A DNA stretch of 6,499 bases, taken from a virus (taxonomy: Duplodnaviria; Heunggongvirae; Uroviricota; Caudoviricetes). Position numbers and translations under genes: made by a program. Each line of letters begins with the position of its first letter. Position 1 is the stretch's first letter. Below are positions 322 to 6,411 of this stretch, one piece after another. The stretch lies in IMG/VR virus record IMGVR_UViG_2713896779_000013; one strand, 5' to 3'. A model generated the notes under the pieces. The model had not been told where the DNA came from and did no database searches. It saw nothing but the letters and a program-made list of their open reading frames with translations.

Positions 322-531
322 TTACGGTGCTGTTTTAAGTCCTGCCGGGATTTCGTTATTGTCCATGCGAATAACTTTATCAACCGGATAACAGTTGCCG
401 GGAATTTTCTGTTCCGCTGCGGCAGCCATGCATTCTTTCATTGAGTCATGTATACCAATAACAAGATCGACTGGCTCGCCTGTATTAAGAAAAACCGTCA
501 GAACGAGTGCAAATACTGTATTCATTGTCAT
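322..531 (-). CDS. small hypothetical protein (~69 aa) with N-terminal hydrophobic segment
   Basis: The supplied ORF is 322..579, but the ATG at 531..529 overlaps the TGA stop of the upstream gene (ATGA coupling), and an alternative ATG at 525..523 has AAGGA about 8 nt upstream. Translation MTMNTVFALVLTVFLNTGEPVDLVIGIH... starts with a 16-residue hydrophobic stretch (signal or membrane anchor). No family recognised. Confidence 0.45.
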   Translation of the reverse strand: MTMNTVFALVLTVFLNTGEPVDLVIGIHDSMKECMAAAAEQKIPGNCYPVDKVIRMDNNEIPAGLKTAP

Positions 532-710
532 CGTCCTTTTTGCATCAGGCGTAAACGGGCCAGCATTGAAACAATGCATATTTGATTTAATAGCTCCCGT
601 TCGTGTTTTCTCTTATTAATGGCATCTTCAGTAAATACAGGGTTACTGATTCTGACACCAATTTCAAAACAACCTTCAGACGTATTGACGTTTGGTAATA
701 ACGTTTCCAT
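528..710 (-). CDS. small hypothetical protein (~60 aa)
   Basis: Internal ATG (710..708) of supplied ORF 528..806, preceded by GAGGA with a 7-nt spacer; stop TGA 530..528. Translation METLLPNVNTSEGCFEIGVRISNPVFTEDAINKRKHERELLNQICIVSMLARLRLMQKGR. The longer upstream extension has no RBS. No family recognised. Confidence 0.45.
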   Translation of the reverse strand: METLLPNVNTSEGCFEIGVRISNPVFTEDAINKRKHERELLNQICIVSMLARLRLMQKGR

Positions 711-2324: not shown

Positions 2325-2801
2325 TTAAGTTCCAGTTTTTGTGATGTTCTGGCTTTTCCGTTCAGATTCTAGAGCTTTCAGATACTTACCCACTTTCATT
2401 TCCATCGCTGCTATGTAGGCGCGAACATCGTGGTCAACCCAATCTGGTTCTGTAGCATTTCCAGATAACAGGAAAGCTACAATCGCTCTTATTTCATCAG
2501 AGGCTGCTTGATAAAGGTTGTTTATATCTAAAAGTTCACTTTTTGTATCTGAATTGGTGGGGGTTGGTATGGGGTATTCGTTAAGCCCCCAATGCTCTGG
2601 ACCAACAACATCAGAAAAGAAACGCCATAATTCTGGAAGTTTATCTTTACTTATAGAGCCTTTCTTAATCCAGTCATAAATTGATGGTGGTTGGACTTTG
2701 AAGTGGCGTGCGACCTCCGCCTTTGATTTGACGGATCCCGATGCGATTTTTTTGTTAATGGCCTGCTCTATCGCTCGGCCTAAGTCTTTACCACTAAGCA
2801 T
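2325..2801 (-). CDS. racR: prophage repressor, XRE-family HTH (RacR-like, CI functional analogue), 158 aa
   Basis: ATG 2801..2799, 158 aa. N-terminal HTH-like segment (GSVKSKAEVARHFKVQPPSIYDWIKKG). Divergent from a cro-like gene, between two operator clusters. Length and context match E. coli K-12 Rac racR (from memory, not searched). Confidence 0.8.
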   Translation of the reverse strand: MLSGKDLGRAIEQAINKKIASGSVKSKAEVARHFKVQPPSIYDWIKKGSISKDKLPELWRFFSDVVGPEHWGLNEYPIPTPTNSDTKSELLDINNLYQAASDEIRAIVAFLLSGNATEPDWVDHDVRAYIAAMEMKVGKYLKALESERKSQNITKTGT

Positions 2802-2924: not shown

Positions 2925-3221
2925 ATGAAAAAAGAGAACTATTCATTCAAGCAAGCTTGTGCTGTTGTCGGTGGGCAATCAGCAATGGCTAGGCTTTTAG
3001 GTGTATCACCTCCAAGCGTAAATCAATGGATCAAAGGGGTACGTCAATTGCCTGCCGAGAGATGTCCAGCAATTGAACGTGCAACAAGAGGTGAGGTTCT
3101 GTGCGAAGAACTTCGTCCTGATATTGACTGGTCATATTTACGACGTTCGGCATGTTGTTCGCAGAATATGTCAGTGAAGCAACTAAATGACAGTAACAAA
3201 TCCTCATTTGATCATACCTGA
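2925..3221 (+). CDS. ydaS: Cro-like HTH regulator (YdaS family), 98 aa
   Basis: ATG 2925 with GGAG 8 nt upstream. HTH-like segment QSAMARLLGVSPPSVNQWIKG. First gene of the rightward operon, divergent from the repressor; 98 aa matches K-12 YdaS length (from memory). Confidence 0.8.
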   Translation: MKKENYSFKQACAVVGGQSAMARLLGVSPPSVNQWIKGVRQLPAERCPAIERATRGEVLCEELRPDIDWSYLRRSACCSQNMSVKQLNDSNKSSFDHT

Positions 3222-3243: not shown

Positions 3244-3669
3244 ATGAAAATCAAGCATGAACACATCCGCATGGCGATGAATGCCTGGGCGCGTCCTGAT
3301 GGCGAAAAAGTTCCAGCAGCTGGAATAACCCAGGCTTATTTTGAGTTGGGTATGACGTTTCCTGAACTGTATGACGATAGCCATCCGGAAGCCTTGGCTC
3401 GCAATACCCAGAAAATTTTCCGCTGGGTAGAGAAAGACACCCCTGATGCAGTTGAAAAAATTCAGACGTTGTTACCAGCGATCGAAAAGGCAATGCCACC
3501 TTTGCTGGTGGCCAGAATGCGCAGCCACAGTTCAGCTTATTTTCGGGAGCTGGTGGAGACGCGGGAGCGACTGGTGAGAGACGCTGATGATTTTGTCGCA
3601 GTGGCAATCGCCGGTTTCAATCAGATGAACCGTGGTGGCCCGGCAGGAAATGCTGTGGCAGTTCATTGA
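3244..3669 (+). CDS. ydaT: CII-like protein (YdaT family), ~141 aa
   Basis: ATG 3244 with AGAGG upstream. Immediately follows the cro-like gene, as ydaT does in Rac-type prophages. Length is close to K-12 YdaT (140 aa, from memory). Confidence 0.8.
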   Translation: MKIKHEHIRMAMNAWARPDGEKVPAAGITQAYFELGMTFPELYDDSHPEALARNTQKIFRWVEKDTPDAVEKIQTLLPAIEKAMPPLLVARMRSHSSAYFRELVETRERLVRDADDFVAVAIAGFNQMNRGGPAGNAVAVH

Positions 3670-3740
3670 CTGACAATAGCCATATCGAATCGCTTCCGGC
3701 AACTCGTGAGTAAAAAGATTCGGTATCAGAAGAGGTGAGT

Positions 3741-4888
3741 ATGGCTAACGCCTGGCTCAGATTATGGCATGACATGCCAAATGACCCTAAGTGGCGAACA
3801 ATTGCCAGGGTGTCAGGGCAGCCAATTGCAACAGTGATGGCAGTGTATATCCACCTCCTGGTGAGCGCGTCACGAAATGTCACGCGAGGTCACATTGATG
3901 TCACGACAGAAGATTTGGCAAGTGCGCTCGACGTGACAGAAGAGGTAATTGATTCAATTTTGCAGACGATGCAGGGGCGGGTACTTGATGGTGATTTAAT
4001 CACTGGATGGGAAAAACGCCAGGTGCTGAAAGAGGACAACGGCAATATTTCGCAAACCGCAAAATCTCCGGCAGAGCGCAAGAGGGCGCAGCGAGAGAGG
4101 GAAAGAAAGCGGGAACAAAATGGCGATTGTCACGGCGAGTCACGAAATGTCACGCACATGTCACGACGAGTCACGACAGATAAAGATACAGATAAAGATA
4201 CAGATCAAGAAGATCAAAACACTATGGACCATGGCGTAAAAAACGCCACGAACCAGGCAGGGGATGTTCAGACCGTCAATCCTGGTCAGCCAGCAGGCAC
4301 GACACCGNNNNNNNNNNNNNNNNNNNNNNNNNNNNNNNNNNNNNNNNNNNNNNNNNNAAGCCGATTCAGCGTATGCGCTGAAAGCCGATTCGGGCGCTGT
4401 GCAGCAGGTGATGACCGCAAGGCAGGAGCAATCACACCAACTTCAGCAGCCTGAAGCCGATTCCGCCATTCAGCGGGAAGCCGATCGGGTAGTCCCGGAA
4501 AACACCGGTCAGTCTGTGGGACGAGTGGATTATCCGGATGTGTTCGAACAGGTCTGGCGGGAGTACCCGTTGCGTGCTGGGGCAAACCCGAAGAAATCCG
4601 CTTTCAGTGCCTGGAAGGCCAGATTACGCGAGGGGGTGCCACCAGAGGCCATGCTGGATGGCGTGAGGCGTTACGCAAGATACTTGGCGGCTACCGGGAA
4701 AACGGGAACGGAATTTGTTCAGCGAGCGACGACGTTTTTTGGACCGGACCGGAATTTTGAGAACCCCTGGTTGCTCCCGGTAAGCGGCACGAACAACCAG
4801 CGTTGTGTGAATCATATTTCTGANNNNNNNNNNNNNNNNNNNNNNNNNNNNNNNNNNNNNNNNNNNNNNNNNNCTGGTCATGAGGTAA
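3741..4888 (+). CDS. ydaU: replication initiation protein, YdaU-like (DUF1376-type N-terminus); interrupted by two N-runs, frame changes across the first gap, 3' end uncertain
   Basis: ATG 3741 with AAGAGG and a 5-nt spacer (supplied ORF starts at GTG 3735). N-terminal MANAWLRLWHDMPNDPKWRTIARVSGQPIATVMAVYIHLL resembles the YdaU/DUF1376 family. After the 4308-4357 gap the protein-like frame is a different one and stays open 4360-4821 (contains DYPDVFEQVWREYPLRAGANPKK...). Proposed end at TAA 4886-4888 is a guess; alternatives are TGA 4881-4883 or 4944. Could be two genes or a pseudogene. Confidence 0.5.
3869..3905. repeat. four GTCACG direct repeats at 10-11 bp spacing inside the replication gene (iteron-like cluster 1)
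   Basis: GTCACG at 3869, 3879, 3900 and GTCACa at 3889; includes the 16-mer TCACGAAATGTCACGC that recurs near 4141. Confidence 0.55.
4130..4220. repeat. iteron-like cluster 2 (about five GTCACG/TCACG repeats at roughly 10-bp spacing) followed by an A+T-rich tandem repeat (GATAAAGATACA x2, GATCAAGAA, GATCAAAAC)
   Basis: Read directly: ...GTCACGgcgaGTCACGaaatGTCACGcacatGTCACGacgaGTCACGacaGATAAAGATACAGATAAAGATACAGATCAAGAAGATCAAAAC. Coordinates +/-1 because of a one-base disagreement between my reading and the ORF track in this line. Iterons plus an A+T-rich segment resemble the lambda ori inside gene O. Confidence 0.5.
4308..4357. other. run of 50 N (assembly gap or masked sequence) inside the replication gene
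   Basis: Literal n characters; lies between the A+T-rich repeat and the AAGCCGATTC repeats, and the coding frame differs on either side. Confidence 0.99.
4358..4487. repeat. AAGCCGATTC direct repeats on a 24-bp period (4358, 4382, 4454, degenerate at 4478)
   Basis: Exact 10-mers at 4358-4367, 4382-4391, 4454-4463 and AAGCCGATC at 4478-4486; spacings 24, 72 (3x24) and 24. They also encode 8-residue peptide repeats (ADSAYALK / ADSGAVQQ / ADSAIQRE / ADRVVPEN), so could be a linker repeat, DNA iterons, or both. Confidence 0.5.
4824..4873. other. run of 50 N (assembly gap or masked sequence) at the 3' end of the replication gene
   Basis: Literal n characters; prevents defining the stop of the YdaU-like gene. 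Confidence 0.99.
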
Positions 4889-4903
4889 TTTTCAGGAGGG
4901 CTT

Positions 4904-5326
4904 GTGGCAAAAGTTTTTACACAAGAAGAGCGGGAAAAAATTAAAGGGCAGGTTCTTGAACTCGTACGCCAGAGTGGGCGCGAGACGTTACGACAACTGG
5001 AAGCTAAAACTGGGGCAACAAGATATCTGATGAGCGTTCTGGCCAGAGAGCTGGTTGCCAGTGGCGATGTATACAACTCTGGTTACGGGTTATTCCCGTC
5101 TGAACAGGCGCGTAAGGACTGGCAAAATACCCGTAAAAAGCTCTCAAGGGCAAAGCTGAAGAAACCTGCAGTGGTTGATCCGGACCTTATCTGGTCGTTA
5201 CCAGACGGCGAAATACGCCGCTACGACAGGCACCAGAACATAATTTGTCGTGAGAGCAGGAGGAGCGAAGTTATGCAGCGTGTGCTGGCGTTCTATCGGG
5301 GAAACTTTCAGGAGGTGATGGAGTGA
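4904..5326 (+). CDS. hypothetical protein (~140 aa), possible winged-helix/HTH segment
   Basis: GTG 4904 with AGGAGG at 4894-4899 (spacer 4 nt); stop TGA 5324-5326 overlaps the next gene's GTG (GTGA). HTH-like stretch ETLRQLEAKTGATRYLMSVLARELVASG. Sits where K-12 Rac has ydaV but is shorter, with no Walker motifs. No family recognised. Confidence 0.55.
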   Translation: MAKVFTQEEREKIKGQVLELVRQSGRETLRQLEAKTGATRYLMSVLARELVASGDVYNSGYGLFPSEQARKDWQNTRKKLSRAKLKKPAVVDPDLIWSLPDGEIRRYDRHQNIICRESRRSEVMQRVLAFYRGNFQEVME

Positions 5327-5619
5327 GGGTGAGAGTTTATATTGCCGGTCCAATGACGGGATATGAAAATTTCAACCGTGAGGCATTTCACAAGGTGGAA
5401 GAGGAACTGAAACGGGAAGGGCATACCGTCTTAAACCCGGCAGTACTTCCGGACGGGCTGACACAGCCGCACTACATGGATATTTGCATGGCAATGATTC
5501 GTTGTGTGGATGCGATTTACATGCTGAATGGCTGGCAGCGGTCAGCGGGCGCTAAGGCAGAGCTGGCACTGGCGGAGAAACTGGGGCATGCGGTGATTTA
5601 TCAGGAGGTGGCTCAATGA
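5323..5619 (+). CDS. DUF4406 family protein (nucleoside 2-deoxyribosyltransferase-like fold), ~98 aa
   Basis: GTG 5323 (alternative GTG 5329) with GGAGG at 5311-5315; start overlaps the upstream stop (GTGA). N-terminus RVYIAGPMTGYENFNREAF..., then ...VLNPA... and ...IRCVDAIYMLNGWQRSAGAKAELALAEKLG match my recollection of the DUF4406 pattern common in phage genomes. Confidence 0.7.
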   Translation: MRVRVYIAGPMTGYENFNREAFHKVEEELKREGHTVLNPAVLPDGLTQPHYMDICMAMIRCVDAIYMLNGWQRSAGAKAELALAEKLGHAVIYQEVAQ

Positions 5620-6077
5620 GAGAGGTTAACTATGAGGCGCTTCGTGAGGCAGCACAAAACTATCAGTCGACGCTGGCGTGGTATCAGGCTACCCCGGACA
5701 GCCCAAATGCTGAACGGGATTGTGATGCGGCTCTTGCTGCGTTTAAGCGTCATATCCGTCATCGGGAAGCGGATATTATCGCTGGTTTGCTGGATGGACT
5801 GGAAGAAGCAAAATCACAACTCAACGAGCAGCGTGAGTATTACGAAGGCGTTATCTCTGATGGGAGCAAGCGTATTGCTGAACTGGATGCGCGGGAAGTT
5901 CAATTACCGACTCGCTACGACCTTCGATATGGACACCCGATAAATGCAGATGAGCGACATGTCATGATACCTAAAGAAAATGGCAGTTGGCTTTACCTGA
6001 TTGACCTAGAACACGCATTACGCGTCGCTGGCATTCGCATCAAAGGAGAGGAGCATGGAAATAAAACCAGAGGATGA
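5616..6077 (+). CDS. hypothetical protein (~153 aa), possibly Ead/Ea22-like
   Basis: ATG 5616 overlaps the upstream stop (ATGA). N-terminus MREVNYEALREAAQNYQ... resembles what I recall of the conserved N-terminus of Ead/Ea22-like prophage proteins; the family call is tentative. Confidence 0.6.
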   Translation: MREVNYEALREAAQNYQSTLAWYQATPDSPNAERDCDAALAAFKRHIRHREADIIAGLLDGLEEAKSQLNEQREYYEGVISDGSKRIAELDAREVQLPTRYDLRYGHPINADERHVMIPKENGSWLYLIDLEHALRVAGIRIKGEEHGNKTRG

Positions 6078-6411
6078 GTTAAGCAATATCGTTTTATTTC
6101 CGGTAAAAGAGGATGACCCTCGTAATCAGGTTAATTTTCTTTATGAGCCATCGGAAAGACCATATTGTCATCACGCCTCTGTCCGGGTTGACGAAAAAGA
6201 GCGTCAGGTCCGCTGTAAAATCTGCGGTGCAGTTGTGGAGCCATTTGACTGGATGCTCTCTGTGGCGAAAAGAGAAACTAGGCTGGCAGATGATGTAAAG
6301 CTATTGCGCCAGGAGGAACAGGAAAGGCGGAAAAATATAGAAAAGTTAATTCAGATTGAGCGTAACGCGAAAGCGCGGATACGCAGGGTGACAAAATCCA
6401 GAACTGAATAA
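6055..6411 (+). CDS. hypothetical zinc-ribbon protein with basic, probably coiled-coil C-terminus (~118 aa)
   Basis: ATG 6055 with GGAGAGGAG immediately upstream; overlaps the previous gene by 23 nt. Putative metal ligands C-H-H ...(13 aa)... C-K-I-C (YCHHASVRVDEKERQVRCKICG), followed by a charged segment LRQEEQERRKNIEKLIQIERNAKARIRR. Stop TAA 6409-6411. Confidence 0.6.
   Translation: MEIKPEDELSNIVLFPVKEDDPRNQVNFLYEPSERPYCHHASVRVDEKERQVRCKICGAVVEPFDWMLSVAKRETRLADDVKLLRQEEQERRKNIEKLIQIERNAKARIRRVTKSRTE

Follow-up and report, generated by a model that had tools for sequence, protein, structure and literature searches.

Iteron arrays and an A+T-rich run inside an initiator gene

The 6,499-nucleotide (nt) stretch of viral DNA analysed here, IMG/VR record IMGVR_UViG_2713896779_000013 (hereafter "the window", taken at its full length), matches with 100% identity a Rac-like lambdoid prophage found in Escherichia coli O121 and related strains (NZ_CP028110 and others). 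On its plus strand, at 3741-4873, it carries a replication initiator gene of the "phage replisome organizer" type, which comprises 356 codons in its intact copy. Inside this gene lie two arrays of the hexamer GTCACG, the second of which is followed directly by an A+T-rich run, and this combination of elements is considered here as a candidate replication origin.

GTCACG occurs ten times in the window, compared with an expectation of 2.23 ± 1.48 copies, a count that none of 200 shuffled sequences reaches, and nine of the ten copies fall within 3869-4175; the clusters of this hexamer described in an initial annotation, which was made from the sequence alone, are thus real. Array A (3869-3905, plus strand) consists of GTCACG at 3869, 3879 and 3900 and the variant GTCACA at 3889, with spacings of 10, 10 and 11 nt, and it falls within codons 43-55, in the DNA-binding domain, where the same nucleotides are coding sequence and DNA element at once. 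A single inverted GTCACG, on the minus strand at 3932-3937 (CGTGAC on the plus strand), occupies codons 64-66, where the putative recognition helix begins, and matches units of array B over 12 nt in inverted orientation (I5 and I6). Array B itself (4129-4175, plus strand), which is the proposed origin core, consists of GTCACG at 4129, 4139, 4149, 4160 and 4170, with spacings of 10, 10, 11 and 10 nt, in the linker between the two domains of the protein. The two arrays have an exact word in common, which the initial annotation had correctly recognized as identical but had given as a 16-mer; it is the 17-mer GTCACGAAATGTCACGC, found at 3869 and at 4139.

The A+T-rich, purine-biased run that adjoins array B (4176-4222, plus strand) reads as three units of ACAGATAAAGAT followed by CAAGAAGATCAAAAC and is the proposed DNA-unwinding element. 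Tandem Repeats Finder reports 2.9 copies of the unit ACAGATAAAGAT at 4176-4210, directly after the last core of array B, in agreement with the tandem repeat that had been noted there. The run holds the least stable 40-mer of the whole gene, at window position 4180, with a nearest-neighbour free energy (dG) of -43.4 compared with a gene mean of -57.2 ± 3.6, a displacement of 3.8 standard deviations. The run also contains two GATC (Dam) sites, at 4203-4216, for which a link to Dam/SeqA control may be considered; at the corresponding position, several homologues and ydaU of E. coli K-12 have GATCTAAAA-type sequences. A match of the run to a DnaA box or to an oriC 13-mer was considered, but comparison by eye left two to three mismatches, and no such identity is claimed.

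Conservation of the arrays among homologous loci

Homologues of the N-terminal domain of the initiator were collected by a scan of one genome per species, which gave 52 loci in gamma-, beta- and alpha-proteobacteria, and records of Pseudomonas, Aeromonas, Ralstonia and uncultured phages were added. A search for arrays of the most frequent hexamer proved noisy (it suffered from ties and from a GATA run), and arrays were called by a search for periodic chains. Two arrays of one short motif with a period of 10-11 nt are present in about 40 homologous loci of proteobacteria and phages, among them loci in Escherichia, Pseudomonas, Aeromonas, Bordetella, Serratia, Acidovorax and others, and they occupy constant positions in the gene, at nt ~116-160 and ~376-450. 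GTCACG is kept at both positions in homologues down to about 58% identity and is almost absent from the 4-5 kb flanks of the homologous genes. More distant homologues have no GTCACG and instead carry CGAACGC, GTAACGC/GAAACGC or GTAACG at the same two positions, and the initiator gene of Ralstonia phage Firinga (38% identity) has both arrays with the motif GCAACGC.

The two arrays of a locus agree in their motif, and discordant motifs were found in no locus. Arrays A and B of the same locus have 425 7-mers in common, compared with 179 ± 23 when arrays are shuffled among loci, and none of 10000 shuffles reaches 425. In the 42 loci for which array B was evaluated, it has two to five copies, spaced 10 nt apart in 92 cases and 11 nt in 12, and its cores are distributed over the three reading frames as 28, 34 and 33; because the frames are used near-equally, array B is a repeat of DNA and not of peptide. 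The 40 nt on its 3' side have an A+T content of 0.69, compared with 0.45 for the whole gene, and a coding-strand purine content of 0.76, compared with 0.57, and in both respects this segment exceeds the gene-wide value in 42 of 42 loci.

The overlap of array A with the coding sequence of the binding domain allows the constraint on synonymous sites to be measured directly, a comparison that the initial annotation had proposed. Over 22 homologues, the fraction of the major codon is 0.98 in the core codons of array A and 0.51 in 46 other conserved codons (Mann-Whitney p = 1.3e-6). A single codon is used in 91-100% of these homologues at A43 (GCG), S44 (TCA), V47 (GTC), T48 (ACG), G50 (GGT), H51 (CAC), V54 (GTC), T55 (ACG) and V65 (GTG), the last of which belongs to the inverted copy and is GTG in all 19 homologues that have valine there. 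R49, whose third base falls between cores, is free, its major codon reaching only 41%. On the evidence of these alignments, the repeats are under selection at the DNA level. The expectation that they would be kept as DNA in homologues is thus borne out for the two arrays, whose motif classes switch jointly, but not for the AAGCCGATTC repeats farther downstream, which are discussed below.

Some loci depart from the usual arrangement. At L045 (1494-2381, Sphingomonas sp.), part of the linker array, GAAACGACYGGTAACGCAGGTGTAACGCA, recurs as a near-identical stretch of 29 nt where the N-terminal domain is encoded, and lengthens the protein there by about 13 residues; it looks like the direct trace of a transfer between the arrays. 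L047 and L055 (Serratia and Pantoea) have ACTACGTA-type repeats at nt ~330-560 in place of the usual arrays, together with an extra protein segment inserted after the N-terminal domain, in genes of 396 and 434 amino acids (aa).

The initiator protein

The intact gene, as read from an identical complete genome, is a single open reading frame (ORF) of 356 codons, whose product, WP_001262384, matches phrog_3729, "replication initiation protein", with an E value of 4e-256, and carries the NCBI family name "phage replisome organizer". No Pfam family reaches its threshold for the protein. The gene had been taken for a relative of ydaU, of the DUF1376 (PF07120-type) family, an assignment that was rejected: DUF1376 gives no match to the protein even at E <= 10 and none to any of 26 family members, and a BLASTP comparison with K-12 YdaU, whose N-terminal domain is unlike that of the initiator, aligns only the last 19 residues. 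By sequence, then, the gene is a positional analogue of ydaU with an unrelated N-terminal domain. Homology to lambda O is likewise not indicated, there being no match to the Pfam family Phage_rep_O, and the label "DNA replication protein O" on some of the phage records is a matter of annotation only.

The N-terminal domain (aa 1-93, encoded at 3741-4019 on the plus strand) is winged-helix-like and is the presumed binder of the iterons. Its AlphaFold2 model has helices at residues 2-14, 16-25, 29-49, 56-63 and 67-77, the last two as a helix-turn-helix, and a beta hairpin at 78-87, with a predicted local distance difference test (pLDDT) score of 80-91 over most of the domain and a mean of 62 for the whole protein; residues 93-107 and 128-189 are predicted to be disordered. 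Foldseek matches to MarR, Rex and CAP are weak, with E about 1 and template modelling (TM) scores of 0.2-0.5 over about 50 residues. The profile PF09681 (Phage_rep_org_N) aligns weakly but from end to end, aa 5-123 on profile positions 1-119, with 12.8-15 bits compared with a cut-off of 23.3 (E 0.03-0.12), and TIGR01714 scores 15.5 bits compared with a cut-off of 49.8.

The C-terminal domain (4500-4823, plus strand) is common to the replication proteins of Shiga toxin (Stx) phage 75/02 and of ST64B (Sb42), and is presumed to be the part that recruits the host replisome. It ends, beneath a run of N at 4824-4873, in a DnaT-like ...IPPGFRG tail, the last 24 residues matching the DnaT C-terminus (NCBIfam E 7e-4, 19.2 bits compared with a cut-off of 201). 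PF17948, the DnaT DNA-binding domain, has no match in the protein of the window, although the N-terminal domain is found joined to many different C-terminal parts and some of these sister variants do carry PF17948 (DnaT-like). The tail, ...SEPDNEIPPGFRG (L001 5540-5609), is common to the otherwise unrelated K-12 YdaU, Stx 75/02 and ST64B Sb42 proteins (QIPTGFRG in the last), and it could be a short motif on which a host replication factor docks.

What travels with the arrays, and a possible basis of specificity

Among 40 array-bearing loci, the C-terminal parts of the protein form at least 16 clusters, while at least 25 are seen for the ORFs downstream and at least 26 for those upstream, and by sequence comparison the N-terminal domain alone accompanies the arrays throughout. 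When the gene is compared with variants that have other C-terminal domains, or with the 75/02 gene, similarity starts or stops at the A-rich part of the run (~4198-4216), and the N-terminal domain, the arrays and the A-rich run therefore form one heritable module. The type of motif is independent of the host, since the GTCAC and GAACG types both occur in Pseudomonas.

The GTCAC and GAACG classes differ in the protein at aa 45-56, aa 65-67 and position 31, the rest of the domain being common to both; in the model, the two segments fall in and beside the helix-turn-helix, one just ahead of helix 2 and the other where the putative recognition helix begins. The first of them is encoded by array A and the second by the inverted copy, and it is conceivable, if doubtful, that these residues set the specificity for the iteron. 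If that were true, one stretch of nucleotides would hold both the DNA site and the residues by which it is read, as a self-referential pair of initiator and origin, and the specificity of the origin could shift in one concerted step through gene conversion between the arrays, which would explain the easy rise of new, mutually incompatible replication specificities in mosaic prophages. A comparison of L030, which has GTCACG, with its close relative L025, which has GTAACG (mixed cores), argues against a simple one-to-one code, since the V-T dipeptides are unchanged between them.

Interpretation as a replication origin

The presence of iterons beside a melting-prone run, at a domain boundary of the initiator and within an early-right operon, reproduces the layout of ori-lambda and of oriL, and it is for this reason that 3869-4222 is read as an origin. 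By analogy with those systems, this segment is probably the replication origin of the Rac-like lambdoid prophage, embedded in the gene for its own initiator, and an origin of the lambda style, consisting of iterons and an unwinding element, is the best reading of the locus; the core would be 4129-4222 and 3869-3937 an auxiliary array. The idea at the centre of the initial annotation, that iterons and an adjacent A+T-rich segment inside an initiator gene correspond to the lambda ori in gene O, agrees with the comparative sequence data.

The proposed mechanism begins with the binding of the N-terminal winged-helix-like domain to the GTCACG iterons, which, at one iteron per helical turn, would place all sites on one face of the DNA. 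Oligomerization of the initiator on the five iterons of array B, in the linker, would then strain and open the adjoining run at 4176-4222, and the C-terminal domain with its DnaT-like tail would recruit a host helicase or primosome, a step which is proposed because no helicase or loader is encoded next to the gene. Array A, about 260 base pairs (bp) upstream, with four direct iterons and one inverted, would probably be an auxiliary or control array, acting through looping, a raised local concentration of the initiator or handcuffing. We infer binding, unwinding, helicase recruitment and origin activity from what is established for lambda O and ori-lambda and for SPP1 gp38 and oriL.

Several observations weigh against this interpretation. 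Binding and origin activity in this initiator family are argued by analogy, and the winged-helix assignment comes from a model of medium confidence (the mean pLDDT being that of the whole protein) with weak fold matches. Clear arrays are missing in L032, L034, L044, L047, L050, L051 and L055, and L040 carries array B only. The iteron groups coincide with clades, and the concordance of the arrays consequently reflects only about three to four independent motif switches; gene conversion between the arrays could also yield part of it, and the stretches shared between arrays extend to a 17-mer in E. coli and a 29-mer in L045. Reading of the DNA by the protein and mere tolerance of it are not separable, because the residues that separate the classes are encoded by the iteron DNA itself. 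The prophage copy, which may be defective, lacks a helicase-loader gene beside the initiator, and among the phage records no well-studied phage was found to carry the N-terminal domain.

A search of plasmids for a natural minimal replicon with the initiator gene did not find one; it gave large plasmids that carry prophage inserts, chromosomes under a wrong label and two circular Pseudomonas phage genomes of 51 kb, and no case among these is decisive. A literature search on ydaU, oriJ, GTCACG iterons and replisome-organizer origins found no description of the proposed origin.

Alternative explanations

The main rival is a regulatory role of the same sites, in which the arrays would be bound by the initiator, or by another protein of the module, while the true origin lies elsewhere; autorepression, a transcription roadblock in the early-right operon and copy-number control are possible variants. 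DNA-level constraint and covariation show that the sites are functional without showing which function they serve, and in that sense they accommodate regulation too, as do the distance of array A from the melting-prone DNA and the resemblance of two separated arrays to the control arrays of iteron plasmids. A pure operator would, however, make superfluous the least stable DNA of the gene, which follows array B in 42 of 42 loci, and the sites lie 128-430 nt inside the ORF rather than at a promoter; a scan of 3600-4950 for promoters and terminators gave nothing above chance, its single weak promoter-like match being on the opposite strand. An origin elsewhere in the window would also lack a visible counterpart, in that no further cluster of repeats beside an A+T-rich run was observed there. 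A regulatory function in place of an origin is for these reasons unlikely.

A second alternative concerns the extent of the origin rather than its existence. The initial annotation had included in it a set of AAGCCGAT repeats at 4358-4487 (plus strand), and these might be further protein-binding sites that belong to the origin, a proposal that we regard as distinctly improbable. The four copies of AAGCCGAT(T/C) and their spacing in multiples of 24 nt are real: the exact 8-mers occur at 4358, 4382, 4454 and 4478, at spacings of 24, 72 and 24 nt, and nowhere else, and the AAGCCGATTC unit is a partial palindrome. All the AAGCCGATTC copies nevertheless share one frame (EADS/KADS/EADS/EADR), and the spacer of about 85 residues that contains them, which is predicted to be disordered, is absent from L023 (which has the same N-terminal domain, arrays and family of C-terminal domain), from L025 and from ST64B. 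Since the spacer is missing in these relatives, the repeats are not a conserved component of the origin and are probably no part of it. In Stx 75/02, which has one copy fewer, an indel of 1 nt shifts the last copy into a different frame while the DNA, GGGAAGCCGAT, is unchanged, and this sequence comparison gives a weak hint of constraint at the DNA level. Conservation of the AAGCCGATTC repeats says little in itself, because the sole diverged comparison is at 81% identity; a scan of viral contigs with the C-terminal half of the protein gave only relatives of at least 99% identity, which are not informative on this point, and the repeats were judged instead on L023, L025, ST64B and Stx 75/02.

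It has also to be considered that the repeats and the A-rich run are mainly a recombination joint between exchangeable N- and C-terminal modules, a short conserved stretch that is retained since it favours mosaic exchange between prophages, with no role in initiation. Such a joint would fit the break of similarity among variants at or just after the A-rich run (~4198-4216), the GATAAAGAT-type runs at the same place in the unrelated initiator genes of K-12 (ydaU) and Stx 75/02, and the presence of the module in up to four copies per genome, but it leaves unexplained the location of array A within the domain, the frozen synonymous sites, the one-turn period and the concerted switching of the arrays, and the use of the run as a joint is possibly a by-product of a conserved origin element. 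A recombination joint alone is therefore very unlikely, while use as a joint may coexist with the origin role. The remaining proposal, that the repeats arise as a side effect of a repetitive peptide (SRNVT or VT, and a DKDT linker) or of slippage in the linker, with no function as DNA, could appeal to the shared 17-mer, which is read in the same frame in both clusters (as SRNVT), and to the predicted disorder of the linker, low-complexity linkers often growing by slippage, but the near-equal use of all three frames by the array B cores, the invariance of synonymous sites within cores and their variability beside them, and the conservation of the motif rather than the peptide between the arrays and across homologues largely refute it at the sequence level and make it exceedingly improbable.

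Comparison with known systems

The interpretation of 3869-4222 as an origin can be set against several systems in which an initiator binds direct repeats. In ori-lambda, which lies in the middle of gene O, direct repeats are followed, in the sense of transcription, by an A+T-rich tract with a purine/pyrimidine strand bias, and the number of iterons in origins of the lambda type varies, from four in lambda to six in Stx phages, the additional copies lengthening the protein (PMC7466680). The candidate origin of the window similarly sits midway along the initiator gene, has direct repeats that lead into an A+T-rich biased tract, varies in copy number among loci and occupies the operon slot after cro/cII-like genes. 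Its protein is not homologous to O, however, its cores of 6-7 bp recur with a period of 10-11 bp, a second array and an inverted copy lie among the codons of the binding domain, and the initiator has no P-like or DnaC-like gene after it. Lambda iterons, by comparison, are units of about 19 bp with internal inverted symmetry and a longer period.

The gp38 protein of SPP1 binds direct repeats in its own gene 38 (oriL), beside an A+T-rich unwinding element (PMC6316719). The window shares with it the placement of the repeats in the initiator's own gene, the A+T-rich element and the NCBI name "phage replisome organizer", although the score of the PF09681 profile is far under its cut-off and homology is unproven. 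The two differ also in that SPP1 has its second origin 13 kb away, whereas the second array of the window is in the same gene, and in that SPP1 has its own loader and helicase.

The iteron plasmids (P1, F, R6K and pPS10) provide a further parallel: a winged-helix Rep protein binds direct repeats beside an A+T-rich region, more than one array lies near rep, and the specificities of iteron and Rep co-evolve. In plasmids, the iterons usually measure 17-22 bp, lie two helical turns apart and are outside the rep ORF, whereas the arrays of the window are inside an ORF and are translated.

A positional counterpart is the ydaU gene of the K-12 Rac prophage, which has the same slot in the order racR - ydaS - ydaT - replication gene and the same ...IPPGFRG tail, as well as short repeats of its own, TGTTCAAAC (L005 2012 and 2045, and inverted at 2069), followed by AATAAAGATACAGATAAAGATC. 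The N-terminal domains of the two proteins are unrelated, and a DnaC-like gene, ydaV, follows ydaU, whereas the window has no such gene. Rac has been reported to have an active origin, oriJ (PMC3945230), and the literature search found no paper that places oriJ at the sequence level.

Similar combinations are seen in other initiator genes that occupy this slot. Stx 75/02 has two copies of AAGGGGCT in the coding region of its N-terminal domain and two inverted copies before a GA-rich run (L004 2079-2100 and 2334-2356), the TGTTCAAAC-type repeats and AATAAAGATACAGATAAAGATC of K-12 ydaU extend over L005 2012-2140, and the ST64B gene sb42 (L138 1285-1430) has its own repeats of ~21 nt and three copies of GAACCAGTCA in the linker. 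Initiators with unrelated N-terminal domains thus have their own short repeats, followed by a purine-rich run of the GATAAAGAT or GAACAG type, and these sequences suggest that repeats followed by a purine-rich run are a general rule by which origins in this lambdoid slot may be located.

An origin inside a phage initiator gene is of a known kind; what is new is the initiator family and the features of the arrangement, namely very short iterons at one-turn spacing, a second array whose nucleotides also encode part of the binding domain and are constrained at synonymous sites, and at least four specificity classes between which the two arrays switch jointly. The N-terminal part of the initiator belongs to no Pfam family, and no described origin was found for it in the literature, yet it is present in 2220 of 5426 complete E. 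coli genomes, in up to four copies per genome, and also in Pseudomonas, Aeromonas and Ralstonia phages. An origin that is defined by sequence and has at least four natural specificity classes would offer a test bed for the co-evolution of initiator and origin, and routes to the questions of how co-resident prophages avoid or exploit one another's replication and how a DNA-binding site can overlay a protein-coding domain. It would also mark the predicted start of replication of prophages in Shiga-toxin-producing lineages such as O121, O111 and O157, account for recurrent assembly breaks in the initiator gene, and supply a signature for annotation, consisting of two arrays with a period of 10-11 nt followed by a GATAAAGAT-type run.

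The prophage setting

The order of genes around the initiator is exonuclease, DUF1482, dicB (528-710, minus strand), then racR (2325-2801, minus strand), ydaS (2925-3221), a ydaT-family gene (3244-3669), the initiator, DUF977 and DUF4406. The initiator is in the early-right operon, downstream of the cro- and cII-like genes. No helicase or helicase-loader gene lies next to it, the genes at 4904-6411 being DUF977, DUF4406 and others. Among homologous initiators, a DnaB-like gene follows in Pseudomonas and Ralstonia phages and a DnaC-like gene in an Aeromonas phage and in Stx 75/02; the prophage copy, with no adjacent loader, must either use host loading factors or be defective in replication.

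Three runs of N interrupt the window, at 227-276, inside the exonuclease gene, at 4308-4357, and at 4824-4873, where the stop codon of the initiator is covered. Each is 50 N long, while the identical complete genome has 150, 1 and 47 bases at these places, and the runs are therefore scaffold placeholders at contig ends. The run at 4308-4357 replaces one G in complete genomes of 100% identity, and 1644 complete genomes cross this point at equal length with no extra sequence. Because it stands for one base, the shift of frame that the window seems to show is artificial, and the suggestion that it marks a repeat-induced assembly collapse was rejected. The initiator module is present in up to four copies per genome, and large clusters of database entries for it are labelled "partial"; the contig ends are better explained by a multi-copy, mosaic module than by the collapse of repeats.

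A scan of the window against Rfam found no RNA family, and a reading of the inverted GTCACG copies as structured RNA is consequently without support. The segment at 711-1455, from dicB to the next annotated gene, has no annotated coding sequence in the reference genome and no Rfam match, with no DicF-like family at the gathering threshold.

A different motif flanks racR. ATTAGGC occurs five times (0.64 expected) on both sides of this gene, at 2199-2230 and 2829-2896, and GTCACG was accordingly rejected as a candidate for the repressor operator. The ATTAGGC sites are likely to be operators of RacR/YdaS, one set of which lies downstream of racR, and one pair of them forms the palindrome TTAGGCGTCGCCTAA, at ~2882-2896.

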